Assembly: GCA_043798995.1 (NCBI GenBank)
Contig: JAZDOD010000010.1
Location: 845 to 64,844, forward strand
Length of the DNA stretch: 64,000 nt
Direction: 5' to 3'
From: a bacterium
GTDB taxonomy: Bacteria; Patescibacteriota; Patescibacteriia; JAACEG01; JAGUWE01
The position numbers were made by a program, and so were the translations under genes. The notes under the pieces were generated by a model. The model saw only the letters and a program-made list of their open reading frames with translations. It ran no database searches and was not told the DNA's origin. Positions within the stretch are counted from its first letter, which is position 1. Each line of letters opens with the position of its first letter. Of this stretch, positions 813 through 60,950 are shown piece by piece.

Positions 813-3800
813 ATGTTTTCTAAAAATACAGACAAAAAATTTTATAAAAAGAAAATATATTTGCTAACTTTTGGTTTTTTAATTGGTTTTGGTTTTTTTC
901 TTTTGGCTAAGACGGCACTAGCTCAATTCGGCCTGGAATACGCCACGGCTTCTGGCTTGGGTACGCGCGGACTTAAACAAACTGTTTTTACCGTCATTAA
1001 TGTTCTCTTGGGTTTCTTGGGCATTGTGGCCCTCGTTATTGTGATGTATGGCGGTTTTGTTTGGATGACAGCCGGCGGCAATCAGGAAAAGGTTTCGCGA
1101 GCCAAGAAAATTTTATTAAATGGCTTAATTGGCCTGCTTTTAATTTTAACTTCTTGGGGGATTGCCAATTTTGTTTTGGGCCAGCTTTGGGGAGCAACCG
1201 GCGGTGGCGGACCAACCCCGGGTTCGCCTTGTGATTGCGTGACAGAACTTGGAATTTGTTCCGGGTGTTTGCGTTGTCAGAATACAGGCGGACCGGGTGT
1301 TTGCACCTGGCAGAATGATGTAACTTGCGACCCGACTTGTTTTGGCTTGCCCGGCGCCAAGACCTTTTACGCTCAAAAATTCCAGCCAACTTCGCCGCCG
1401 GATGCCATTCGCAACGCTGTAGTCAGAATTACCTTTAAAGGAGTAAATACTTCAAGCCAGCCCGGAGCCATTAATTATGGTACGAACTTTTCCGTGATAG
1501 ATGTGACCGGCGGTAATGTTTTAGTCAATCCTGATGCGGCCGGTAGTTATCCTAAGGTGGTTGGCAACCGCTTGGAATTTAAGCCCGACACTAACTGTCC
1601 GCCGCCCAATGCCAGTTATAAATGTTTTAATAGCAATAATGATTATCAAATTGTTATTAGTAATTTACCGCCCAACACCGCCGTGATTTCCAATACGGCC
1701 GGCATTAATATTAATTGTATTTTAGGAGCTGGCTGCCAAGCTAATTTTCGCACCAATGATATTGTTGACACCACGCCGCCGCAGATCAGCGTTTCAACTT
1801 TAAGCCAAATTTGCGCCGGTACAACCAATACGGTTTATGCCAATGGCAAAGATGATTCTGGCATTGCTTATGTTGAATTTTATTACGACGATGGCAGCGG
1901 CGACGCTTTAATTGATACTGATAATGCACCAAACTGTCTTGGTGTACCACCTAATGTTAATTGTTCAGCCCAGGTTAATTGGGATACTTCAGGAGACCCT
2001 GATCTGGTGGCCGGCGGTACCGCCTTTCTCAAAGCCAAAGCTATGGATTTGGATTCCAATGAAGGTAATTCAGCCAATTATAAAGTGACTTTGCGGGCGG
2101 CTCATTGCTGTAACAGCATTCAAGATATGGATGAAGAAGCGATTGATTGCGGCGGAACCGACTGCGCGGCTTGCGCCGGCGCTAATTGCGATATTGATAT
2201 GCCAACCCCGGGCTGCCAACCTGACGATATGGTTTGCGCTTCAATTTTTTGCGATCCAAGTCCTGGCCCGAACGAGTGCAAATGCCAGCAGCCGCCGATT
2301 ATTGACTGGGTCCAGCCGGCCGGTGGTTTTTGCGACGGCTCAATCAATACTCCGTGCAACGATAATGCTGATTGTTCTACTTTTATTCCTAATACATGCA
2401 ATAATACCGATCCTAATGGCCGGCCGGGTAATTTTGTCACCATCGGCGGCAGATTTTTTGGCACGACATCCGGCACGGTTAATTTTAGAGGAGCCGCTGG
2501 CTGGATTATGGCTCTTCCCCCTATTTCAGTTAATCCGGCCTGTCCTCCTGACACTTGGACTGATCACGAGATTGTGGTAGCCGTGCCTAACGGGGTAGTT
2601 AATGGCCCTATTCAAGTTGAAACAGCCGCCGGTTATACTGACCAGACCGCCGATACGCGCGGACCGCTGGTTCCTGATTTTCTTGTTAATACTATTACTC
2701 GTCCCGGGCTTTGCCAGGCCGCGCCAAATAGCGGCCCTTACGCTACCTTAGTTAATTTGACCGGTGTGCGTTTTGGCCCGGCTGCAACTTCTCGGACCAT
2801 AGAATTTGGCAATGAAACGAGTTTTGTGCCCGGAGAAAACATTAACTGGATAAATAACGAAAACGCTAATGTTACCGTGCCTAATCTTCGGCCGGCAGAT
2901 GTCGGGCTTAGGATTAAAACAGATGATATTTACAGCAATTATTTGTCGTTTAGGGTTTTGCCCGGCACGGCCGGTGGGCCGTATATTTCTTATCTTGACC
3001 CTGTTAGCGGGCCGGTCGGACAATACATGACGATTTTTGGCGGTAATTTTGGCAATCAAGTAGGCACGGTTAAGTTTATTGATGGCGGCGCAAATGAAGT
3101 TAACGCCGATGTTAATTTTCCCAGCGAGTGTTTAAATAATTTTTGGCACAATAATTATATTATTGTCAAAGTGCCCAGTGCGGCCGGAGTAAACGACGTA
3201 AAAGTTATCACCCAAGCCGGCAAAGAAAGTAATGTTGTACCATTCACCATAACAGCCGGCACTCCTGGGCCGGGCATTTGCGCTCTGATTCCTGATAACG
3301 GTCCGGTTGGCACAACAGTTGATTTTTTTGGCGATAATTTTGGCGGAGCCCTGGGCCAGATAATTTTTCATAATAGTGTTTCCGCCCCCATTACCTCGTG
3401 GGCTAACCAGTCAATTAAGAGTTCAGTTCCTTTAGGCGCGGTAACCGGCCCGGTTTTTGCCCGCCGTGGCGGTCAGCCGTCAAATCAAGTGCCTTTCCGG
3501 GTCGGAGCTTGTCAGGATTCTTCCCAATGCCAAGCGGGCGAGGAGTGCTGCGAGGACAAGACCTGCAGGATAACTTGTCCGGAAAAAGTGGAAGCAATCT
3601 ACGGCTGGAGCTTTACCACCGGCGATTATTTTGTGGCTCAAAATTGTATTCGGGACATAGAGATTCCCGCGACCGGGCCAAAAGGCGGCAATATTTGCGT
3701 TAATGCCCAAATTGCCGTGCGTTTTACCACTACAGTTAATGATGCTTCTGTGCCACCTAATGTTGTAGTTGAAAGATGTGATAATGATGAATGCACTACG

Positions 3801-6800
3801 GTAAGTCCAGTTGCCGGAAATGTGACTATGGTTACTTTAGCCACCGATCCGGTGACTGAGGGCTTTACTTTTACGCCCAGCATTATAGTTTTATTTGATA
3901 CAAACACAACTTATCGCGTGACGCTCCGGGGCGGACCCGGCGGCATTGAAGACGAAAGCGGCACGCCGCTTATTGATGATTTTTCCTGGACTTTTAAAAC
4001 CAGAAACGACGGCCGCCAATGCGAGATTGATAAAATCAATGTGGCGCCGAATAATTCTAAATTAGTGCTGATGGGCGCTACCCAGGACTACGTGGCTCTT
4101 ATTACGGCCAAAGAAGATCCCTGCCTTTTGATTGATCCCAAGGGCTATACTTGGGCTTGGGAGTCAAGCAAACCCGAAGTTGCTCAAATTTCTGGGTTTA
4201 CTGTCAATACTGCTACAGCTGTGGCTATGGGAGCTGGTTCGACCGATATCATTGCCAAAATTCCTTCAGAAAATAAATCAGGTAAAGCCATCCTCACGGT
4301 TGATCTTTCCGGCCTCCAGGTTTTAAACGCCGTGCCTAAATGCGATACAACCTGCACCAATGCCCAGATTAGGGCGCGCTTTAGCAACTGGGTTGATGAC
4401 AATACTTTGGCCGGCAATCTTTTTATCTATCAGTGCCCGAATAAGGTCTGCGGTTCAGGTTTTACGCCCGTGGCTTTGAACGGCGCCAATCCTTATGATT
4501 ATTTCTGGAATGGTTTGACCGGCGATTCGCTTTTGGACATTAATCAGGCCGCTAATTTTAACCCCAATACTTTTTATCGGGTGATTATCAAAGGCGGCCC
4601 AGCCGGTATTAAAAATTATTTAGGCGGGGGACTTTCTAATCCGAATTATAAATCATCCGCGGGCGAGGAATGCGAACCACCCGGTTTCCCGGGTTGTAGT
4701 GCGAGTTGTTTACACACCAGCGGCGAATGTACGCCTGGCTCTTTAGGTTGTAATGGCGCAGGGCTTCATACCGGTTCAATCGGTTCAAGCTGCGGCAATG
4801 GCGCGGTTGAGCCGGCACGGGGAGAAAATTGCGATCCTAGCGCTCCTGGCTATGGGCCAAGTGGTTGTGATAGTACAACATGTTTACTCAAAGGTAGTAT
4901 TTTTCCAGCTATTTGTGGCGACAGTTCCACGCCGGATAGGGTTCACGGTGAGGCCTGCGATGATAGAAATCAGACAGCCGGCGACGGTTGTTCGCCAAAA
5001 TGTTTGCGCGAAGGCACAGTGGCGCCAATTTGCGGCGATGGAAATATTGATCTTGGCGAGGACTGCGATGATGGAAATATTACTAACGGCGATGGCTGTT
5101 CGGCTAAATGCCTTGCTGAAGGAGCGATCGGCTCGGTTTGCGGCGACAGAAGAGTCGGCCTTGGCGAGGATTGCGACGACGGCAATACTGCGCCAAATGA
5201 CGGCTGTTCAGGCAGTTGTTTAAGCGAAGGCGCAACTGGTTTGGCAGTTTGCGGCAATAATGTAGTTGAAGATGGCAAAATTAATGATAGCTATTCCTGG
5301 GTTTTTGGCGTGGGCAATGCCATTTGTCAGCCCTTGCGAAGCGAAGTGGTACCAGCTAACCTTACCACCATTATAGGCAAAACCATAGATTATTTGGCTA
5401 ATGTTTATAGCTTGGCTGATGAATGCTCGCCCACAGGGCAATTATTGGATGCCGACGATTATCCTTGGGAGTGGACAACTAACAATGCTTTTGTGGCCGA
5501 TTTTGATCCGCCGCTTCCATTACCGCCTCATCCTCCGCGAGAAACGGTCAAAACCCTGAACGTTGGCAATGCCCAGATTTGCGCTTCGGCTGACACAACA
5601 ACGCCTCCGGATGGAACTTATGATCTTCAGGACTGCGCTGATATTGTGGTGCAAAATCCGGGCCCTCGGCGTTGCCAGCAATCGGGCAATGCTTGCTGTG
5701 CCAATGGCGTATCAAGTTGCGAGCCGGCTTATAAATGTCTGGAAAATCAGAGCTTGCCAGCTTGCCCTTGGTCGCCCGGCTTTTTTCAGGATTGCCTTTG
5801 TTGTTGCGATCCAACGGATGATAAGTGTCCGGCCCCGCTTTCCTGCTACGCTGACAAAGCTCCTTGCGCGGGCGCTAACCGCGGACTTTGCTGCGGCTGT
5901 AAGCAAGACAGCGAATGCCCTGACCCGATAGGTGAGGGCTGCGGCAGTGACAAGTGTTGCCATAGCCGTCCGGCCGTTGCAGCTACTCTGCCGGCGAATA
6001 ATGATGCCAATATCTGTCGCAATCTTAAAATCAGAGTTGACTTTGATCCGCTTGAGCCAATGCAGACCTCAAGTTTTGTTGGTAAAGTAGAAATGATAAA
6101 AATGAGCGACAGCAGTGCAGTTAAAGGGATGACTTCTTCAGCCGGTAACACTATTTTATATTTTAGTCCACAAAGTATTTTAGAACCACAAACCCAATAT
6201 CGCGTTACGATTAAAAAGGAGGTCTTAAGCATTTATAAAGTAGCAATGGCGGCTGATTATATTTTTTCCTTTACTACAGGCGATATCATCTGTGAGGCCG
6301 ATTATTTAAAAGTTTCAATCCAGCATGATGCCGATCTTTTTGTCACAACTAATAAAGATCTTTTCACTTGCGCCAAGACCAGCGGTTGTATCGATGATAC
6401 CAATACAACCATCTTGCCTCCTGATATACCTGACAATCAGCACCTTTATTTAGCCGAAGCCATGGATATGACCGGCGTGGTTTTAACCGGCTATGATTAT
6501 AATTGGCAGACCACTGACCCCGATGATATTGTTAATCCTAATACTTGGGCTTTAAATTCAATTACCGTTACGGCTAATAATAAAAAAGGCCGGACGACCT
6601 ATAATGTTAAGGCTACGCCACAACTCACTTCTGGCAATACCGCCGCTGTTTCTAACTATGTTTATGTGACTAACTTTATTTGCGAGAATCCTTGGCCGGC
6701 GGTTAATAATTGGCCTTGGATTGATGATTCGGTTTTAAATCCAAATTCAATTTGCAATACCCCCGGTTGCTTTAACGTTAATACTCAATTCCAAATAATG

Positions 6801-13222: not shown

Positions 13223-14980
13223 ATGCCGAAATTAAGCAATTTGCTTTTAGATAAAATAGTTCAAAAGAAATTAGCCAGCGTCGCCGAACTTGAAAAATTA
13301 GTCAAAGAAAGCAAATCTTCCAATGAAGAGATTGAAAATTTGTTAGTCAAAAAAAGAATTGTTGATATTGAAACCCTAACCCAGCTTAAGGGCGAGCTTT
13401 TAGGAGTTCCTTATATTAATTTAAAGGGTACTTCGCTGGATCCGGCGGTGATTAGCTTAATTCCGTCTGAAGTAATGGAAAATCATCAGATTATTGCTTT
13501 TGAACGCGCCGAAGGGGAACTTAAGGTCGGTTTGGTTGAGCCGCAAAATTACCGGGCGATTGAAACAATTGAATTTTTGGCCAAAAAAAATCGTCTGCGC
13601 GTCAAATATTTTATCATTTCTGCCGCCAGCTTTGAGGAAGTTTACAGTAAGTTCAGAACTATTAAAAAAGAGGTGGAAAAGGTCTTAGATATTGCCTCAG
13701 CCAAATATACGCCGGCTAAAGAACGGGAAGGATTGTCCACGTTTAAGGAATTGGAAGTTGTTAAGGGAGCGCCGATTTCAAAAATTGTTGATGTCATTAT
13801 TAACCACGCGGTTGAAGGCAAGGCCTCGGATATTCATATTGAGCCGGGCTCTAAAGAGTCAAGGGTCCGCTATCGTTTGGACGGCATTTTGCATACCTCG
13901 TTAATTTTACCAATTTATTTACATTCAGCCATTATCTCGCGCATCAAAGTTTTGGCTAATTTGAAATTAGATGAAACCCGCATTCCCCAGGACGGGAGAA
14001 TTCGTTTGGTCATCAGCGGAAAACCGATTGATTTTCGTATTTCAACTTTGCCGCTCTTGGATAATGAAAAAGTGGTAATGAGGGTTTTGGATACTTCGGC
14101 CGGCGTGCTTAGCCTTTCAGATTTGGGCTTTAACAAACACCAAGTCGCCATTATTGAAAGAAATGTTGAGAGTTCGCACGGTATGTTTTTAGCGACCGGT
14201 CCGACCGGCTCTGGTAAATCAACCACGCTTTACACCGTGCTTAATATGCTTAATAAAGAAGGCGTTAACATTATTACTTTAGAAGATCCGGTTGAGTATT
14301 ATTTGAAAGGCGTTAATCAATCGCAAGTTAAGCCGGAAGTTGGTTTTACTTTCGCCAGCGGGCTTCGTTCAATTTTGCGCCAGGACCCGGACATTATTAT
14401 GGTCGGTGAAATCAGAGATAGCGAAACGGCCGAGCTGGCGATTCACGCCGCTTTGACCGGCCACATTGTGCTTTCAACTCTTCACACTAACGACGCTACC
14501 GGAGCCATTCCTCGGCTTATTGATATGAAAGTTGAGCCGTTTTTATTGTCTTCAACTTTAAACTTAGTAATTGCCCAAAGATTAATCCGCCGCCTTTGCC
14601 AGCATTGCCAGCAAGAGGTTGAGTTGCCGGCCAATCTTAAAGAGGATGTGTTTAAGGCCTTGGCCGAACTGCCCGACGAATATTTAGACGAAATAAATAT
14701 TAAAGACAAGAGAAATATTCCCGTTGAAAAATTGGTTTTTTATAAAGGCCAAGGTTGCAATCATTGCGGCGAGACCGGTTATAAAGGCCGCTCGGTTATT
14801 GCCGAAGTTTTGCAGGCGACGGATAATTTGAAAAAAATTATCAACGAGGGAAATAAAATTGATGAGGTAATGGCAGAAATTAAAAAACAGCAAATGATCT
14901 CGGTTGTTCAGGACGGCATTATTAAGGCCTTAAAAGGCATTACCAGTTTAGAAGAAGTGATGCGGGTGATGAGAGAATAA
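13223..14980 (+). CDS. pilB: Type IV pilus assembly ATPase PilB (GspE family)
   Basis: GspE N-terminal domain, Walker A 'GPTGSGKSTT', Asp box, His box and the tetracysteine 'CQHC...CNHC' motif are all present in a 585 aa protein. Confidence 0.92.
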   Translation: MPKLSNLLLDKIVQKKLASVAELEKLVKESKSSNEEIENLLVKKRIVDIETLTQLKGELLGVPYINLKGTSLDPAVISLIPSEVMENHQIIAFERAEGELKVGLVEPQNYRAIETIEFLAKKNRLRVKYFIISAASFEEVYSKFRTIKKEVEKVLDIASAKYTPAKEREGLSTFKELEVVKGAPISKIVDVIINHAVEGKASDIHIEPGSKESRVRYRLDGILHTSLILPIYLHSAIISRIKVLANLKLDETRIPQDGRIRLVISGKPIDFRISTLPLLDNEKVVMRVLDTSAGVLSLSDLGFNKHQVAIIERNVESSHGMFLATGPTGSGKSTTLYTVLNMLNKEGVNIITLEDPVEYYLKGVNQSQVKPEVGFTFASGLRSILRQDPDIIMVGEIRDSETAELAIHAALTGHIVLSTLHTNDATGAIPRLIDMKVEPFLLSSTLNLVIAQRLIRRLCQHCQQEVELPANLKEDVFKALAELPDEYLDEINIKDKRNIPVEKLVFYKGQGCNHCGETGYKGRSVIAEVLQATDNLKKIINEGNKIDEVMAEIKKQQMISVVQDGIIKALKGITSLEEVMRVMRE

Positions 14981-14985
14981 TCCCC

Positions 14986-15180
14986 GCTCTAATTGACCTA
15001 ATTGACCTAATTGACCTAATTATTCTAAATAAATTCTCTCCCTACGGGAGATCTCTGTCCCTTCGGGACATCTCCCGAAGGGATGACCAAAGGGAGACAA
15101 ATCCCAATGACCAATAAAATTTTGGGATTTAGAAAATTGGGAATTATTTAGAGCAATTAGACTAATTAGAATAATTAGGA
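14986..15180. repeat. Inverted-repeat-bounded intergenic element: left arm is a 'taattgacc' x3 tandem, right arm is 'aattagactaattagaataattagg', with an internal cluster of short G/C hairpins (tctccc-N3-gggaga, tgtccc-ttc-gggaca)
   Basis: Read directly from the sequence between pilB and the receiver gene. Confidence 0.55.
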
Positions 15181-15198: not shown

Positions 15199-15621
15199 AT
15201 GGTCAACAACAACAAAAAAACAAAAATCCTCCTGATTGAAGATGACGTTTTTTTATCTAATATTTACAGCAAAAAATTTGAAAGCGAGGGCTTTGAAATG
15301 TTGATTGCTTTGGATGGAGAAAAGGGGCTGAAACTGGCTTTAAGCAAAGAGCCGGCTTTGATTTTATTAGATCTTCTTTTGCCGGGCCTAAACGGCTTTG
15401 AAGTTTTAAAAGTTCTTAAAAAAGACGAAATGGCAAAAAAGATTCCGGTCATTCTTTTAACTAATTTAAGCCAAAAAGAAGATATTGAAAAAGGACTAGC
15501 TTTGGGAGCAGACGATTATTTGATTAAGACCCATTTTATGCCTTCGGAAATAGTGGAAAAAGTCAAGAAGTTTTTAAGCAAAACATCTTTTAAATCCGAA
15601 ATCCTAAGCACTAAACTCTAA
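15199..15621 (+). CDS. Single-domain response regulator (CheY-like receiver)
   Basis: 'KILLIEDD...LILLDLLLPGLNGFEVLKVLK...KIPVILLTN...GADDYLIK' carries the conserved receiver Asp and Lys. It sits between pilB and pilC. Confidence 0.85.
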   Translation: MVNNNKKTKILLIEDDVFLSNIYSKKFESEGFEMLIALDGEKGLKLALSKEPALILLDLLLPGLNGFEVLKVLKKDEMAKKIPVILLTNLSQKEDIEKGLALGADDYLIKTHFMPSEIVEKVKKFLSKTSFKSEILSTKL

Positions 15622-15729: not shown

Positions 15730-16941
15730 ATGTCCATTTTTAACTATAAGGCAAAAAACCGCAAAAGCCAGACCATTAAAGGCAAGGTTGAGGCAATGAC
15801 CGAGGAAGTGGCAGCTGATATTTTAAAAGACAAAAATCTTGTTGTTATTAAGATAAGCCGCCAGAAGCGGATTTTTGTTCTTGATAAGATTTCGGAAACA
15901 CTTTTTCATAGGGTTAAAATTAAAGATCAGGTGATTTTTTTTCGTCAGCTCTCTATCCTAATTTCAGCTAATATGCCCTTAGTCCAGTCTCTTCGCATTT
16001 TAGCCAAACAAACTCGCCTTGAGTCCTTTCAAAATATTATTTTAGACATAGCCGATGATGTGGAGGGAGGCAATCGCTTATCCGATTCTTTAGCCAAATA
16101 CCCGCGGGTTTTTAACAATTTCATTATCAATATGATTAGATCCGGCGAGACCTCGGGCAAGCTTGAAGAGGTCTTGATTTATCTGGCTAATCAGCAGGAA
16201 CAGGATTATGATATGATGAGTAAAATTCGCGGGGCAATGATTTATCCGGCTTTTATTTTCGGGATGTTACTTGTGGTTGGGGTGGTGGTGATGACTTTTG
16301 TCATTCCCAAACTGACCGCGATTTTTACCGAATCGGAAACCAAACTGCCAATGGCCACCACGATTTTGATCAATACTAGTAATTTTATCATCAATTTTTG
16401 GTGGCTTTTACTTTTACTTTTTTTTGTGCTTTTGTCATTTTTGCAAATTTATATCAGAACGCCCTTTGGCCGGCGTCAGTGGGATGTTTTTAAGTTAAAA
16501 ATACCGATTATCGGGCTGCTTTTTCAGAGAATTTATTTAGTCCGTTTTACCCGCAGTTTTTCCACCCTGCTGACCGGCGGAGTCGTAATTACCAAGGCCT
16601 TGGAAGTAACCAAAGAAGTGATTGGCAATGTAGTTTACAAGGAATTGATTGGCAAGACCATTAAAGAAGTTGAGGACGGCAACTCCTTAGTTTCAATTTT
16701 TAGACAGAGTCCCTATGTCCCGGCTATGGTTGTTCAGATGATTGCCGTGGGCGAAGAAGCCGGTAAATTAGATTTAGTGTTGACTAAAATCACTGATTTT
16801 TACACCAAAGAAGTGGAGACGCTCGTTAAAAATTTGCTGACCCTGCTTGAACCATTGGTTATTGTTTTAATGGGTTTGGGCGTGGCCGCTCTCGTCGCCG
16901 CCGTTATTTTGCCCATTTACAACTTGGCCTCGCAGTTCTAA
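15730..16941 (+). CDS. pilC: Type IV pilus inner-membrane platform protein PilC (GspF family)
   Basis: Duplicated T2SS-F domains, 3 TM helices, 403 aa. Confidence 0.9.
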   Translation: MSIFNYKAKNRKSQTIKGKVEAMTEEVAADILKDKNLVVIKISRQKRIFVLDKISETLFHRVKIKDQVIFFRQLSILISANMPLVQSLRILAKQTRLESFQNIILDIADDVEGGNRLSDSLAKYPRVFNNFIINMIRSGETSGKLEEVLIYLANQQEQDYDMMSKIRGAMIYPAFIFGMLLVVGVVVMTFVIPKLTAIFTESETKLPMATTILINTSNFIINFWWLLLLLFFVLLSFLQIYIRTPFGRRQWDVFKLKIPIIGLLFQRIYLVRFTRSFSTLLTGGVVITKALEVTKEVIGNVVYKELIGKTIKEVEDGNSLVSIFRQSPYVPAMVVQMIAVGEEAGKLDLVLTKITDFYTKEVETLVKNLLTLLEPLVIVLMGLGVAALVAAVILPIYNLASQF

Positions 16942-16994: not shown

Positions 16995-17381
16995 ATGAAA
17001 ATAAAAAATTTTGAGGATCTGAATATTTGGAAGTTAAGCTTAAAAATAACCAAGGAGATTTATGACTTAACTTCTAAAAGCGGTTTTTCTCATGACTTTG
17101 CTTTGAGAGATCAGATAAGAAGAGCCATTATTTCTGTTAGTTCTAATATCACGGAAGGATTTGAAAAAAATAACAACAATGAATTCATTCGTTATCTTAA
17201 AATCTCAAAAGGATCAACTGGCGAGGTTAGAAATCAACTTTATATCGCCTTGGCGGTAAATTATATTACTCAACAAGAATTTGAAAAGGTTAATCAAGAA
17301 TTAATATCTTTAGCCAATCAGATCGGGAAGTTTATTAGTTATTTAGAAATAAGAAGAAAATTAACCCGCCAAACCCGTTAA
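16995..17381 (+). CDS. Four-helix-bundle protein (23S rRNA intervening-sequence protein family, TIGR02436-like), copy 1
   Basis: 'DQIRRAIISVSSNITEGFEKNNNNEFIRYLKISKGSTGEVRNQLYIA'. The gene is flanked by inverted repeats at 16972-16994 and 17363-17389. Confidence 0.75.
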   Translation: MKIKNFEDLNIWKLSLKITKEIYDLTSKSGFSHDFALRDQIRRAIISVSSNITEGFEKNNNNEFIRYLKISKGSTGEVRNQLYIALAVNYITQQEFEKVNQELISLANQIGKFISYLEIRRKLTRQTR

Positions 17382-17517: not shown

Positions 17518-18051
17518 ATGTTAAAAAAGAAAAAAGGTTTTACTTTAATTGAATTATTGGTCGTTATCGCTATTATTGGTATTTTATCAACCTTAGCCAT
17601 TATTGCCTTAGGCAATGCCCGCGCCAAAGCCCGAGACGCCAAGCGTCTTTCCGATGTCAAACAGCTTTCTACCGCCTTAGAGATAGCTGAAACAACCAAT
17701 CCCGGAGCTAGTTTAGCCTGTCTCGGCCGTGTTATAACAGACAATGGTGTAGCCACAGATACTTGCACCGATTTAACCGAATCCGCTAATGGCGTAGTTT
17801 TAAACTGGGATAATTTTTATGATCCTTCTTGCTCTCCTACTGCTACCCCTGCTTGTACCACTGTTTGCTCTACTGCTGCTCCAACAACAGCGTGTATGTA
17901 CTCAGTAAATCTTGGTGCAACTGTTGCGATGACCACTGCTAATTACAATATTTGTTTTCGCATGGAACAAACCAGTAGTGTAGGTGGCGCCGGTCTTTAT
18001 AAGATTTCCACCGGTGGCAATATTTCATCGGGTTGTACCGATTTACCGTAA
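17518..18051 (+). CDS. pilA: Type IV major pilin (prepilin with class III signal peptide)
   Basis: 'KKGFTLIELLVVIAIIGILS' is the prepilin cleavage/methylation motif. There is a strong Shine-Dalgarno sequence and a terminator downstream. Confidence 0.9.
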   Translation: MLKKKKGFTLIELLVVIAIIGILSTLAIIALGNARAKARDAKRLSDVKQLSTALEIAETTNPGASLACLGRVITDNGVATDTCTDLTESANGVVLNWDNFYDPSCSPTATPACTTVCSTAAPTTACMYSVNLGATVAMTTANYNICFRMEQTSSVGGAGLYKISTGGNISSGCTDLP

Positions 18052-18132
18052 CATGTTTTTTACTTTGTCGCCTGCCGGCAGGCTGGATTTTACAAAGGGA
18101 AAAAACAAAAAAGCAACCGGATTTAATAAAAC

Positions 18133-18165
18133 AAAAACTTCTCTAAAAGAGAAGTTTTTGTTTTA
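18133..18165 (+). terminator. Rho-independent terminator after pilA
   Basis: 'aaacttctct-aaa-agagaagttt' stem followed by 'ttgtttt'. It is preceded by a second palindrome 'gcctgccggcaggc' at about 18070. Confidence 0.65.
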
Positions 18166-18218
18166 TACGTTTTCGTCATTAAGGGTAATTTGTGATATAA
18201 TTTTAACAAGGGAGGATT

Positions 18219-18374
18219 AAAAATCTCCCTCAATCCCTCTTTTACAAAGAGGGAAACCGTTTTTCTCCCTTTAAAAAAGGGAGAACCAAAGAGGGATTTG
18301 TATATCTTCTCCTTTTGTCAAAAGGGAGAATTTCCGCCCAAGGCGGATCCGCCTCTGGCGGAAAAGAGGGATTT
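18219..18374. repeat. Hairpin-cluster repeat (AAATC-CCC...GGGATTT family), left direct repeat flanking the DUF559 gene
   Basis: About 110 nt of near-identity with 18739-18850. Both copies end 'tttccgcccaaggcggatccgcctctggcggaaaagagggattt'. Confidence 0.75.
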
Positions 18375-18376
18375 TT

Positions 18377-18739
18377 ATGAGACGTTACTATAAATCTCAT
18401 TTAAGAAATATTTCCAGAAAACTTAGAAGTAATATGACCGAAGCAGAAATAAAACTCTGGAATAGAATTAGAAAAAAACAAATTAACAATTTTCAATTTT
18501 ATAGACAAAAACCGTTAGGTAAATACGTGGCGGATTTCTATTGCCCGGTTAAGGAGTTGGTCATTGAAATAGACGGAGGACAACGTTACGACGAAGCCGG
18601 AGAAATCACAAGGGAAGATAAAGAAAAAGAAAATTATCTTAAAAATATTTTAAAATTAAAAGTAATAAGATTCACTAATATTGAGATAACGAAGAATTTA
18701 GACGGTGTGGTAAATAGTTTAATAGAAGAATTAAAGTAA
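18377..18739 (+). CDS. DUF559 endonuclease-domain protein (Vsr-like fold)
   Basis: 'EAEIKLWNRIRKKQINNFQFYRQKPLGKYVADFYCPVKELVIEIDGGQRY...LKVIRFTNIEI' matches the DUF559 signature (W..LR, FrRQ, DFyc, LvIEiDG, lRf.N). Confidence 0.8.
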   Translation: MRRYYKSHLRNISRKLRSNMTEAEIKLWNRIRKKQINNFQFYRQKPLGKYVADFYCPVKELVIEIDGGQRYDEAGEITREDKEKENYLKNILKLKVIRFTNIEITKNLDGVVNSLIEELK

Positions 18740-18850
18740 AAATCTCCCTCAGTCCCTCTTTTACAAAGAGGGAAGTCACTTCTCTCCCTTTAGAAAAGGG
18801 AGAGTTTCCGCCCAAGGCGGATCCGCCTCTGGCGGAAAAGAGGGATTTGC
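18739..18850. repeat. Right direct repeat flanking the DUF559 gene
   Basis: See 18219-18374. It is a shorter copy that lacks about 45 nt from the middle of the left copy. Confidence 0.75.
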
Positions 18851-18859
18851 ACATCTCTT

Positions 18860-19615
18860 ATGACCCTTATTTTTATCTTTCTTTTCGGCCTGATTATCGG
18901 CAGTTTTCTTAACTGCCTGATTTGGCGGACTTACCAAGGAAAGTCGTTTATAAAGGGCCGCTCAATTTGTCCCAAGTGCCGTCATCAACTTGCTTGGCAA
19001 GACAATATCCCTATTTTAAGTTTTATAATGTTAAGCGGCAAATGCCGCTGGTGTGGCAAACCAATTTCCTGGCAGTATCCCTTAGTGGAATTGGCTACGG
19101 CTATTTTATTTGTTTTGGCGTATTTTGTTGAATTGCGGGTTGCGGGTTGCGGGTTGCGGGTTTTAGCGATAGCTCGCGATTGGTTTTTTATCGCCGTTTT
19201 AATCATTATTTTTGTCCAGGATTTGCGCTGGCAGGTGATTTTAGACCGAATAACTTTGCCGGCCATGGCGGCTGCTTTACTTTTTAATTTAATCTTGGGT
19301 TTTTCTTTAGGAAATCTTTTAATTTCTGCTATAATAGGAGGTAGTTTTTTTGCTATCCAATATCTGGTTTCCCGCGGCCGCTGGATTGGAGGAGGGGATA
19401 TTAGAATGGGGGCGTTAATGGGTCTGATGCTGGGCTGGTCGGTTCTTTTAGCCATTATGTTTGGCTATTGGCTGGGGGCGATCGCGGGAATTTATTTAAT
19501 TCTTAGCGGCCAAAAGAAATTTTCAAGTAAAATCCCGCTTGGCACTTTTTTGGCAATCGGCACAATTGCGGCACTTTTTTGGGGAGAGGCAATATTAGAA
19601 ATTTTTAATTTCTAA
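18860..19615 (+). CDS. pilD: Prepilin peptidase (A24 family) PilD
   Basis: N-terminal zinc-binding CxxC...CxxC ('CPKCRH...CRWCGK') and a polytopic membrane peptidase domain 'IGGGDIRMGALMGLMLGW'. Confidence 0.85.
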   Translation: MTLIFIFLFGLIIGSFLNCLIWRTYQGKSFIKGRSICPKCRHQLAWQDNIPILSFIMLSGKCRWCGKPISWQYPLVELATAILFVLAYFVELRVAGCGLRVLAIARDWFFIAVLIIIFVQDLRWQVILDRITLPAMAAALLFNLILGFSLGNLLISAIIGGSFFAIQYLVSRGRWIGGGDIRMGALMGLMLGWSVLLAIMFGYWLGAIAGIYLILSGQKKFSSKIPLGTFLAIGTIAALFWGEAILEIFNF

Positions 19616-19620
19616 ATTCA

Positions 19621-20274
19621 ATGAAAATTAAAAAATGCCTGCCTGCCGGCGAGGCAGGGAAATTGAAACAAAATTTTGGTTTCACCATTATTGATCTTTT
19701 GGTTTCTATGGCTATTATGACGCTTTTAACTCTAACCTCGATAATAAGTTTTAGACAGGCCGAGCGAAACCAAAATTTAAACAACGCCGCTGAAATTTTA
19801 GCTAGTCAAATTAGAGAGCTTGAAAACATGGCCATTACGGGCAAAGAAGCTCAAGCTGGCCAAGTGCCAGCCGGTGGTTATGGTATTCACTTTGAAAAGA
19901 CCGTAGAGAATATTTTTTATTTCTTTTTTGCTGATATGGATCGCGATTTATTATATAAAACTTCAATCCCGGCAGATCTCGTGCCTTATTTTTCAACCTC
20001 TGATCGCGAGATCGAATTAAAAAAGAAATATTCTCCGCACCCGGATATTATTATTTCTGAGATTAATATTAATGGTCTACCAGTTAATTGGGGGGAAACC
20101 CTATCTCTAGACATAGTTTTCAAAACACCTAATGCTAAGGTTTATGTTAATGGCGAAACAAAAATTAATTTTGTTCTCATTAACTATGTTTCAATTGCTT
20201 TAAAACATACTAAAATTGATAAAACTAAAACTATTAAGATTTATCCTCTTTCGCGGCAGATTAGTGTAGAATAA
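19621..20274 (+). CDS. Minor pilin / pseudopilin (prepilin-type N-terminal domain)
   Basis: 'NFGFTIIDLLVSMAIMTLLT' is a class III signal variant (D at +5). Confidence 0.6.
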   Translation: MKIKKCLPAGEAGKLKQNFGFTIIDLLVSMAIMTLLTLTSIISFRQAERNQNLNNAAEILASQIRELENMAITGKEAQAGQVPAGGYGIHFEKTVENIFYFFFADMDRDLLYKTSIPADLVPYFSTSDREIELKKKYSPHPDIIISEININGLPVNWGETLSLDIVFKTPNAKVYVNGETKINFVLINYVSIALKHTKIDKTKTIKIYPLSRQISVE

Positions 20275-20285
20275 AATTAACTCAA

Positions 20286-20672
20286 ATGTCAAAACTCAAA
20301 ACTCAAAACCACAACTTAAATCTTAAAACTAACGTTAAATACCGTACCTACTATTTTTCTTTAGATGTAATTAAACTTGTTGCTACCCTGCCAAATGAAA
20401 GGATATATTGGATTATTAGTGATCAATTATTGAGATCCGCTACTTCTATTGGAGCTAATATTGTTGAAGCTAAGTCAGCGAGCTCCCGAAGAGATTTTAT
20501 TAAATTTTATGAAATTGCTTTAAAATCTGCTAATGAAACTAAATACTGGTTTTGTCTTCTAAGAGATGGAACCAAAGTTGACAAACAAGGGATAAACAAA
20601 CTTTTAAATGAAGCAGAGGAAATATCAAGAATGATAGGATCAAGTTTACTTACACTTAAAAATAAAAGATAA
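20286..20672 (+). CDS. Four-helix-bundle protein (IVS-protein family), copy 2
   Basis: 'SIGANIVEAKSASSRRDFIKFYEIALKSANETKYWFCLL'. Inverted repeats built from 'tcaaaactcaaaac' words lie at 20283-20312 and 20697-20724. Confidence 0.7.
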   Translation: MSKLKTQNHNLNLKTNVKYRTYYFSLDVIKLVATLPNERIYWIISDQLLRSATSIGANIVEAKSASSRRDFIKFYEIALKSANETKYWFCLLRDGTKVDKQGINKLLNEAEEISRMIGSSLLTLKNKR

Positions 20673-36056: not shown

Positions 36057-36112
36057 TTACCAATTTTCAATCAATTTACAATGATTCAATTTTCAGTTAC
36101 CAGTTTTTTCTC

Positions 36113-36262
36113 CTGTCATTCCCGTCCCTGCTTCCGCAGGGGTAAACTTGTCCCCGCGAAAGCGGGGAGCGGGAATCCAGAACTCAGAAAGTTTATCCCT
36201 GGATCCCGCATCTCAGCCCGAGGCTGATCCGCCTTTGGCTGGAAAGTGCGGGATGACAAAAC
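36113..36262. repeat. MITE-like hairpin element (GTCAT...ATGAC family), copy E4
   Basis: 'tgtcattcccgtccctgcttccgcaggg...ggaaagtgcgggatgacaaaa'. Its reverse complement occurs at 36668-36822. Confidence 0.75.
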
Positions 36263-36304: not shown

Positions 36305-36613
36305 ATGCCTACTACTAAAAAAATTTCAATTCAAGAAATTAAGCATTTGGCCGATTTGGCCAGATTAAAAGTGAGCGAAAGCGAGGTCAAAAAATACGCC
36401 TCGGATCTTTCGGCAATTTTAGATTATGTTGCCGAGTTAAAAGGAATAGACACTCAGAAAATTTCTCCGACTGCCCAGGTGGTGGAAACAGAAAATGTTT
36501 TTAAAAATGATTTGGTTGATTTGGATTATACTGCCAAAACTAAAGAAAAAATAATTAAAAATTCGCCCGAAAGTCAGGATAATTTATTTAAGGTTAAAAA
36601 GGTGTTTGAGTAA
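36305..36613 (+). CDS. gatC: Asp-tRNA(Asn)/Glu-tRNA(Gln) amidotransferase subunit C
   Basis: 'ISIQEIKHLADLARLKVSESEVKKYASDLSAILDYVAEL' and length about 100 aa, located upstream of gatA. Confidence 0.85.
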   Translation: MPTTKKISIQEIKHLADLARLKVSESEVKKYASDLSAILDYVAELKGIDTQKISPTAQVVETENVFKNDLVDLDYTAKTKEKIIKNSPESQDNLFKVKKVFE

Positions 36614-36667
36614 ATTTACAATTTCCAATTATCAATTCACAATAAATTTTTAAATGGCCCAATTTTC

Positions 36668-36822
36668 AATTGTCATCCCGCACTTTCCAGCCAAAGGCGG
36701 ATCAGCCTCGGGCTGAGATGCGGGATCCAGAATGAAAATAGAATAATTGCTGGATTCCTGCTCCCCGCTTTCGCGGGGACAAGTTTACCCCTGCGGAAGC
36801 AGGGACGGGAATGACAAAATAC
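36668..36822. repeat. MITE-like hairpin element, copy E5 (inverted relative to E4)
   Basis: Near-perfect reverse complement of 36113-36262. Confidence 0.75.
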
Positions 36823-49087: not shown

Positions 49088-49201
49088 GAAAATGTGGTTT
49101 AATTGGAAAAGTAAAATCCCCCTATTTCCCCCTTTTTAAAAGGGGGACTAAGGGGGATTTCTGAAATTAAATTTATCTCAATAAGTTGTAAGTTAATTTC
49201 T

Positions 49202-49961: not shown

Positions 49962-50121
49962 ATCATTGCGATAGCCTGTCCAAAAACTGTCATTCCGCAC
50001 TTGATGCGGAATCCAGAATATCTGAAATTTATCTTATTTTTCTGGATTCCTGCTCCCCGCTTTCGCGGGGACAACCCCGTATTTAATACGGGGCCTGCGG
50101 AAGCAGGGGCAGGAATGACAA
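49962..50121. repeat. MITE-like hairpin element (GTCAT...ATGAC family), copy E7
   Basis: 'tcattgcgatagcctgtccaaaaactgtcattccgcacttgatgcggaatccagaa...ttctggattcctgctccccgctttcgcggggacaa...gcaggggcaggaatgacaag'. It shares modules with E1 and E4. Confidence 0.75.
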
Positions 50122-50128
50122 GAAGTAT

Positions 50129-60824: not shown

Positions 60825-60950
60825 ATTAAAATCCCCTTTATTAAGGGGGATTAAGGGGGATTTATTTCCCCTCTTTAATAAAGAGGGGTTAGGGGAGATT
60901 TAGAAATCCTCCCCAACCCTCCTTTTTAAAAGGAGGGAATATACTTATAT
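60825..60950. repeat. Hairpin-cluster repeat (AAATCCC...GGGATTT family)
   Basis: 'aaaatcccctttattaagggggatt', 'tcccctctttaataaagagggg' and 'ccctcctttttaaaaggaggg' palindromes. It is related to 18219, 49100 and 15050. Confidence 0.65.

Follow-up and report, generated by a model that had tools for sequence, protein, structure and literature searches.

A stand-alone DUF559 nuclease gene set between hairpin repeats in a type IV pilus operon: a probable selfish cassette related in design to, but distinct from, REP/RAYT pairs and homing endonuclease genes

Two kinds of described systems come closest to the locus analyzed here. In the pairs formed by repetitive extragenic palindromic (REP) sequences and REP-associated tyrosine transposases (RAYTs), a lone nuclease gene has short palindromic units on its flanks, and copies of these lie scattered, singly or in arrays, between other genes (PMC2817692, PMC3333891, PMC3116915). 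Free-standing homing endonuclease genes are small nuclease open reading frames (ORFs) set between conserved genes, none of which is disrupted, and one homing endonuclease, I-Bth0305I (3r3p), has a nuclease fold related to that of the Pfam family DUF559; VSR, DUF559 and DUF2726 have been grouped in one PD-(D/E)xK clade that includes the structures 1cw0, 3hrl and 3r3p (Steczkiewicz et al., PMC3424549). Here, we analyze a DUF559 gene at 18377–18739 of a 64,000-nt stretch of a Patescibacteriota genome (contig JAZDOD010000010.1, positions 845 to 64,844; hereafter, the window), where it is surrounded by a type IV pilus operon, as delineated by ORF and Pfam annotation, and bracketed by direct repeats rich in hairpins. 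DUF559 is a large and widespread family with a solved structure to which, to our knowledge, no function has been assigned, and we know of no origin proposed for short palindromic repeats such as BoxC of E. coli. We describe the architecture of this locus, the specificity of its hairpin units for DUF559 genes across phyla, their sharp boundaries, the inserted state of the gene and the copies of the units that lack an ORF, and we interpret the whole, with a probability of roughly 0.6, as a compact selfish nuclease cassette, homing-type or REP/RAYT-like, with hairpin end modules.

The gene encodes a 120-aa protein and is flanked by a type IV pilin-like gene upstream (17518–18051; Pfam N_methyl, E=7.7e-10) and pilD, the prepilin peptidase gene, downstream (18860–19615; Pfam A24_N_bact and Peptidase_A24), all on the plus strand; a first-pass annotation, made from the sequence alone, had placed it there, and the Pfam matches bear this out. 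The same annotation had described near-identical hairpin-cluster direct repeats of about 110 nt around the ORF. Two repeat blocks are indeed found, one of 67 nt at 90% identity (18218–18284 and 18737–18803) and one of 55 nt at 98% identity (18320–18374 and 18794–18848), and both copies close with the terminal string that had been quoted. The length holds for the downstream copy (18737–18848, plus strand, 112 nt) and fails for the upstream copy (18218–18374, plus strand), which is longer, at 157 nt, because it contains an extra 35-nt module (18285–18319). The upstream copy comprises hairpins at 18234–18254, 18264–18284 and 18307–18330, an internal G-arm (18288–18298), a G/C double hairpin (18333–18362) and a terminal G-arm AAAAGAGGGATT (18362–18373). 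The downstream copy comprises a C-arm AATCTCCCTC (18741–18750), hairpins at 18753–18773 and 18783–18803, the G/C double hairpin (18807–18836) and a G-arm (18836–18847). The 28-nt double hairpin occurs exactly twice in the 64 kb, against an expectation of 0 from shuffled sequences. Throughout both copies, the 5' arms of the hairpins are all pyrimidine and the 3' arms all purine, as in TCCCTCTTTT-ACA-AAGAGGGA and TCTCCCTTT-AAA-AAAGGGAGA.

Each copy opens with a C-arm (AAATCTCCCTCAATCCCTCTTTT) and closes with the complementary G-arm, the two ends forming a 12-nt perfect inverted repeat (18232–18243 with 18362–18373). The predicted RNA fold of either copy is multi-branched and closed by pairing of these arms (z=-6.4 each), with CUCCCUC paired with GAGGGA in the closing stem of the upstream copy. 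The fit to the ORF is tight: the upstream G-arm (..AGGGGGATT) ends 3 nt 5' of the ATG, with GAGGGA at Shine-Dalgarno distance, the downstream copy opens with the TAA stop codon (18737–18739) as its first three bases, and its C-arm (AATCCCCCT..) begins one base past the stop. A palindromic junction without an ORF lies at 18208–18231, where the G-arm AAGGGAGGATT is joined through the spacer AAA to the C-arm AATCTCCCTC. Rfam covariance models gave 0 matches at the gathering score in the whole window, and a relaxed Rfam scan of 17900–19000 returned chance-level hits only. An identification as plain terminators was rejected, as most of the hairpins are not followed by a T-run and the hairpins are specific to DUF559 genes.

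The protein matches DUF559 (PF04480) almost end to end (98.5 bits, where the cut-off is 20.6; E=2.7e-28; profile positions 3–108 of 109), and this is its sole Pfam match, so that no Y1 HUH transposase domain is found. Its AlphaFold2 (AF2) model (pLDDT 89.6) retrieved 3hrl in Foldseek (E=8e-8, TM 0.83), together with the catalytic domain of I-Bth0305I (3r3p; probability 1.0) and, from PvuRts1I and AbaSI, their Vsr-like domains; PDB 3HRL was also matched by sequence (E=1.2e-16). The family motif D...E-x-D-G-x-x-H is incomplete, with D53, E64 and D66 retained and the histidine replaced by arginine (codon CGT, 18584–18586). This histidine is kept in 118 of the 120 best homologues, and arginine occurs in the window protein alone. 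Thus, of the first-pass statement that all signature blocks of the family are present, the full-length family match stands and the intact motif does not. Because of the substitution, the catalytic competence of this copy is doubtful, its family membership being unaffected, and the copy may be inactive or degenerating. A tblastn search of the window for a second DUF559 copy or remnant found none, and look-ups of the DUF559 and pilD proteins by exact sequence returned no entry.

To place the locus in a wider context, we compared it with its 2 closest homologues and 80 further homologue loci of 32–56% G+C (82 loci in all). In both of the closest homologues (P0002, 68% protein identity; P0008, 63%), the gene lies between atpF and atpH in the ATP synthase operon, flanked by sequence of the same type as in the window, that is, TAAAAATC..hairpins..GAGGGATTTTTATG, the ORF, and TAAAAATCCCCC..hairpins. 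The inserted state can be read from this junction. In three relatives (L096, L097 and L098), atpF and atpH overlap as ATGA, with neither spacer nor hairpin unit, and the empty junction reads ..ATCAAATGAAAATA... Exactly at this position, locus L003 carries an insert of 613 nt and locus L004 one of 471 nt, both host ORFs remaining intact; the L004 insert, a minimal form of the cassette, reaches exactly from the atpF stop to the start region of atpH. Presence and absence at an orthologous site with intact flanks, as is characteristic of homing endonuclease genes, is thus found at atpF|atpH. Moreover, the host genes of L003 are nearer to those of the empty relatives (atpF 68–71%, atpH 63–72%) than to those of the occupied L004 (59% and 53%), and the DUF559 proteins of L003 and L004 are 74% identical. 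Judged from these sequence comparisons, the pattern would need two insertions at one junction, transfer of the cassette between lineages, or precise loss, and the first two of these are homing-like. Two other features of these operons were noted. A 129-aa ORF with no Pfam match lies between atpH and atpA on the minus strand (L003 4082–4471, L004 4006–4395), and it is a second operon-internal insertion because it is missing from the empty relatives L096 and L097; L004 also has a gene for an 84-aa GIY-YIG protein upstream of the ATP synthase operon.

At the window's own site, the search of relatives for a pilin-pilD junction without DUF559, as the first-pass annotation had proposed, was productive. 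Judged by the homologues of pilD, the source organism falls within the Parcubacteria/Falkowbacteria-type bacteria; a pilD scan of the genome_contigs collection yielded relatives at 29% identity only. In the closest pilD relative (L085, 76% identity), there is no DUF559 gene between the pilin terminator and pilD. The interval to the pilD ATG (L085 1–890) instead holds a 174-aa Y1-transposase-like (RAYT-like) gene, with a weak Pfam Y1_Tnp match, bounded on both sides by another, REP-like hairpin family (ACGCAGGCTAAAGCCTGC.., GGATTAGCAAACTTTAGTTTGCG); gene and hairpins make up a pair of the RAYT/REP type, here in a genome from the candidate phyla. Homology between the window and L085 starts at the pilD start codon, and in a relative at 61% identity, yet another palindrome lies upstream of pilD. 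Because relatives hold other elements at this position, DUF559 is not ancestral there, and the spot upstream of pilD serves different selfish elements as a landing place. A clean empty allele of this particular site was not found among the relatives, which offered only the alternative occupant of L085. The first-pass proposal of a selfish or homing-type insertion therefore stands as regards a derived insertion, on the evidence of L085 and of the empty atpF|atpH site; strict homing, in which the nuclease would cleave the empty site, is a candidate mechanism.

Hairpin units of the DUF559-associated family are also found without the gene. In the window, a solo unit is located at 49115–49165 (AAAATCCCCCT..TCCCCCTTTTTAAAAGGGGGA..AAGGGGGATTT) and an array of three units at 60825–60940, with the junction GGGGAGATTT-AG-AAATCCTCCCC at 60891–60914; the segment 60868–60937, comprising this junction and hairpins, is closely similar to the two ORF flanks of locus L018 joined together. 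Together with the E. coli copies described below, these show the dispersal through the genome that is typical of REP/RAYT units. G-arm/C-arm junctions without an ORF are common among the loci, and in L007 the ORF is accompanied by 3.4 tandem copies of a 100-nt unit, 98% identical, with further copies nearby. Stages of decay are represented by ORF remnants with internal deletions that lie beside an intact gene, in L056 and in the ycjD region of E. coli K-12. In the latter (L094 2700–2900, between ycjD and fabI), about 35 nt from the 3' end of the ycjD ORF recur downstream, beyond the intact gene, with hairpin units after them, and have the look of what is left of a second cassette after its deletion.

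In E. coli, the 58-nt unit that flanks ycjD, the DUF559 gene of this species, is found at a median of 17 places per genome; out of 5426 genomes, 3375 carry ycjD itself. [quoted passage not shown] The RefSeq K-12 record has no BoxC feature annotated at ycjD; the ycjD-flank units may be BoxC. BoxC repeats are 56 bp long, with 33 copies in K-12 (PMC5172473).

From these observations, we propose the following account. The left end module of the cassette consists of a pyrimidine-arm/purine-arm hairpin and a G-arm (..AGAGGGATT) at ribosome-binding-site distance from the start codon, the middle of the stand-alone Vsr-like nuclease ORF, and the right end module of a C-arm (AATCYCCCT..) at the stop codon and a second hairpin. 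In the window, the cassette has landed between the predicted pilD promoter and the start codon, breaking neither host gene. The strong pilin terminator (18126–18166, plus strand; a perfect stem of 19 bp with a T-rich tail after it) and a promoter-like site, which is a consensus match only (18173–18201, plus strand; TCGTCA-17-TATAAT with an extended -10 TG, 10/12 consensus matches), both lie 5' of the repeat; since the cassette sits between this predicted promoter and the pilD start, DUF559 and pilD would be transcribed jointly, as one transcript. The direct repeats would be whole ORF-less units (C-arm, hairpins, G-arm) on either side of a live ORF, such flanking units probably originating by local duplication and decay of the cassette. 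The nuclease would cut DNA and thereby promote the spread of the cassette or of the units, the candidate cut sites being the palindrome of G-arm and C-arm whose junction is divided by the ORF, or the recipient gene junction, and recombinational repair may then copy the cassette in. The hairpins, for their part, could hold translation down by masking the ribosome-binding site, and they could insulate the host operon.

An alternative account holds that DUF559 is a Vsr-like host housekeeping or repair nuclease, that the hairpins are cis-regulatory or transcript-stabilizing elements, sequestering the ribosome-binding site upstream and stabilizing the 3' end downstream, with no role in mobility, and that the gene reaches new places by ordinary horizontal transfer. 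The position of the G-arm at Shine-Dalgarno distance, the predicted leader folds that sequester GAGGGA (z=-6.4), the long-retained carA-DUF559 order described below, and the conservation of ycjD in E. coli phylogroups A, B1 and C (PMC12817139) all fit this account. However, it leaves unexplained the ORF-less units far from any DUF559 gene, both at 49115–49165 and 60825–60940 of the window and at the median of 17 places per E. coli genome, as well as the tandem arrays at 98% identity and the direct repeats that bracket the ORF. Neither does it account for a single gene junction that is occupied in two lineages with empty relatives between them, or for insertions that split translationally coupled housekeeping genes. 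We therefore regard a purely host-serving nuclease as unlikely.

The hairpin units could also be independent REP-like or MITE-like repeats (MITE, for miniature inverted-repeat transposable element), moved by another enzyme or by replication slippage and gathering passively beside dispensable genes such as DUF559. Units are indeed found alone and in arrays, other hairpin families are present at other genes of the window, and the G/C double hairpin recurs in the elements that flank gatC. Against passive gathering stands, first, the specificity of the association: within the same loci and contigs, a hairpin was detected in 90 of 111 intergenic regions adjacent to DUF559 (81%) vs 12 of 95 others (13%; p=2.4e-24, odds ratio 30). 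Up to 100 nt from the ORF, hairpins number about 1.0 per locus on each side, a density that falls to about 0.02 per 100 nt beyond 400 nt, and significant direct repeats between the two 220-nt flanks were detected for 21 of 64 DUF559 ORFs vs 2 of 102 control ORFs (p=2.4e-8). Second, placement is exact, with a G-arm ending 0–17 nt 5' of the start codon in 49 of 78 loci and a C-arm starting no more than about 12 nt past the stop in 38 of 80. Third, the ORF and the unit sequence are conserved together where loci are otherwise unrelated, and the conservation ends abruptly. When loci from unrelated contexts are compared, nucleotide homology runs on past the ORF by a median of 37 nt on the upstream side (n=319 pairs) and of 35 nt on the downstream side (n=208 pairs), and the window and L003 are 76% identical over 442 nt despite lying in a pilus and an ATP synthase operon, respectively. 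The downstream consensus, AAATCCCCCTTAATCCCCCTTTnnnAAAGGGGGA, forms a hairpin in which 92% of cells are paired, with 17 double-sided compensatory changes vs 5.5±1.8 in shuffled alignments, none of 500 shuffles reaching 17. Because of these homology boundaries and flank statistics, the inherited unit can be delimited as hairpin, G-arm, ORF, C-arm and hairpin. Finally, the two 23S_rRNA_IVP genes inserted in the same pilus operon have no such hairpins, and no unit is present at the empty atpF|atpH site. Taken together, independent repeats assembling by chance of location seem quite improbable to us.

The association is not confined to close relatives. The same layout was recognized at 32–40% protein identity in Picosynechococcus PCC 7002, Pseudanabaena, N. 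gonorrhoeae, Azospirillum, Deinococcus and E. coli K-12 (ycjD), the N. gonorrhoeae locus being the gene that encodes the PDB 3HRL protein. The link of hairpin units to DUF559 is specific and positionally exact from candidate-phyla bacteria to E. coli, and in the literature on DUF559, ycjD and BoxC we found no description of repeats flanking DUF559 genes. One pair of loci, L062 and L066, carries cassettes that are 95% identical and was considered as a case of recent transposition; this was rejected, as the two share their neighborhood and differ by an indel and a foreign MITE in one hairpin. The foreign MITE-like element, at about 470–612 of L066, has the terminal inverted repeats TATGAGACTGTGTCTCAAT and ATTGAGACACAGTCTCTATA and lies inside the upstream DUF559 hairpin, where it takes the place of the 5' arm present in L062.

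A local accident, in which the ORF was caught up in a single duplication or in recombination between two copies of an intergenic repeat of the host, or else an artefact of metagenome assembly, would fit the 90–98% identity of the two copies, suggestive of recent duplication, and the capacity of such repeats to break assemblies (contig L095 stops within a unit), but is very improbable indeed, given that dozens of independent assemblies share the architecture, as do finished genomes, and that the identical protein is recorded in an NCBI metagenome-assembled genome on a 101-kb contig. The related first-pass suggestion, recombination between two copies of the repeat, is not supported as it stands, since these are family-specific end modules found across phyla and not copies of a host repeat that was there beforehand, and the empty atp site has no repeat.

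Several observations weigh against the selfish cassette that we favor. The cassette encodes no recombinase or transposase, and a PD-(D/E)xK nuclease cannot by itself join DNA. No target-site duplication was detected at the insert boundaries of the window, L003 or L004, and the repeats themselves are no such duplication, being modules that accompany this nuclease family. The atpF|atpH empty site is devoid of a palindromic unit, and thus of the G-arm/C-arm junction that is the candidate nuclease target split by the ORF; homing into a pre-existing hairpin unit, a variant that we had entertained, is weakened by this and cannot account for the atp insertion. G-arms and C-arms do not co-vary within loci (6.18/10 matches vs 6.18 in permuted pairs), so that pairing across the ORF is under no detectable selection, and a selected stem enclosing the ORF was dropped from consideration. 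In one large group of loci, DUF559 directly follows carA, and the adjacency persists down to about 66% nucleotide identity of carA; judged from sequence, this retention looks like stable vertical inheritance, and a host function could be involved. No cleavage data on stand-alone DUF559 proteins were found in the literature searched, and the His-to-Arg change bars any claim of present activity for the copy in the window.

More tentatively, and at somewhat less than even odds, we suggest that stand-alone DUF559 nucleases in general are the dedicated partner of a pan-bacterial and so far unrecognized class of pyrimidine-arm/purine-arm repeats with AATCCCCC / GGGGGATT-type arms, to which E. coli BoxC and the units found in cyanobacteria and Neisseria probably belong, and that these nucleases cut at or near the units and drive their copying. 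If so, this would be a second REP/RAYT-like system, distinct in mechanism from the first because it is built on the PD-(D/E)xK fold, and DUF559 would acquire a function, namely, that of a selfish nuclease cassette whose decayed copies turn into intergenic repeats. The locus also illustrates how tiny, streamlined genomes put up with selfish genes in essential operons, the insertions lying exactly at gene boundaries and carrying their own translation signals. The general rule that links hairpin units to DUF559 genes matters more than the single locus in the window.

The remainder of the window, which is AT-rich (39.5% G+C), provides the setting. Upstream of the pilin-like gene, the pilus operon comprises pilB (13223–14980), a response regulator gene (15199–15621), pilC (15730–16941) and a first 23S_rRNA_IVP gene (16995–17381), and downstream of pilD a pseudopilin-like ORF (19621–20274) and a second 23S_rRNA_IVP gene (20286–20672). 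The two 23S_rRNA_IVP genes, which encode four-helix-bundle proteins (Pfam E=4e-32 and 5e-26), are themselves insertions in the operon, and neither is flanked by pyrimidine/purine hairpins; the pilus operon of L085 also contains a 23S_rRNA_IVP gene, at another position (3595–3969). Within pilD, a GTTGCGG heptanucleotide is repeated about 4 times (19131–19163), encoding the 7-aa insertion LRVAGCG, which is missing in the 76%-identical relative P0122; this tract, in an essential membrane peptidase, could be prone to slippage.

Hairpin clusters of other kinds were observed elsewhere in the window. Between pilB and the response regulator gene (14985–15110), tandem TAATTGACC repeats precede clustered hairpins of the types TCTCCC/GGGAGA and TGTCCC/GGGACA, and a cluster of the GTCATTCC...GGAATGAC family (CATTCCGCACTTGATGCGGAATCCAG, TCCCCGCTTTCGCGGGGA, CCCCGTATTTAATACGGGG) lies between convergent genes at 49990–50125. 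The gatC gene (36305–36613) is set between an inverted pair of hairpin clusters of about 140 nt (36110–36250 and 36660–36820), which belong to another family, of the GTCATTCCCG...CGGGAATGAC type. Both gatC clusters hold a variant of the G/C double hairpin of the DUF559 units (CAGCCCGAGGCTGATCCGCCTTTGGCTG), which may be a separate small element that nests in other palindromes.

How, then, does the element compare with known systems? Among those of the same protein family, E. coli YcjD and N. gonorrhoeae NGO0050 (PDB 3HRL) are likewise stand-alone DUF559 proteins whose genes are set in analogous hairpin repeats, and ycjD varies in presence and absence within its species; they differ from the window gene in sequence (36–38% protein identity) and in hairpins that are adapted to the higher G+C of their genomes. 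Integron cassettes with attC sites offer a more distant likeness, that of an ORF bounded by imperfect palindromes made of two nested pairs of inverted boxes. In contrast to these, the DUF559 cassettes are solitary and lie inside housekeeping operons, with no integrase, attI or cassette array. No RYYYAAC / GTTRRRY core sites were found in the units, and an identification as attC sites was rejected on this ground, on the missing integrase and on the pilus genes that are the neighbors here.

With free-standing homing endonuclease genes, the element shares an empty orthologous site and the filling of the same site in non-sister lineages, and the intact, mutated, internally deleted and ORF-less stages of a homing cycle are all present among its copies. 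It departs from them in its elaborate, conserved hairpin ends, which also exist as independent repeats, a feature not known for homing genes; I-Bth0305I, for its part, is intron-encoded and has an extra DNA-binding region, whereas the DUF559 cassette is associated with neither intron nor intein. The likeness to REP/RAYT pairs extends to the position itself, as the RAYT-like gene with REP-like hairpins of the nearest relative lies in the same slot upstream of pilD. Unlike RAYTs, the DUF559 protein has the Vsr-like PD-(D/E)xK fold and not that of HUH/Y1 enzymes. Its units are pyrimidine-arm/purine-arm hairpins with AATCCCCC / GGGGGATT arms and no GTAG or CGTC tag, they abut the start and stop codons, and they flank the ORF as direct repeats, in contrast to the inverted repeats formed by REPs around RAYT genes. 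In the way it would work, the element comes closest to REP/RAYT pairs and to free-standing homing endonuclease genes, but with a PD-(D/E)xK and not an HUH fold, and with no intron or intein, it is a member of neither class.

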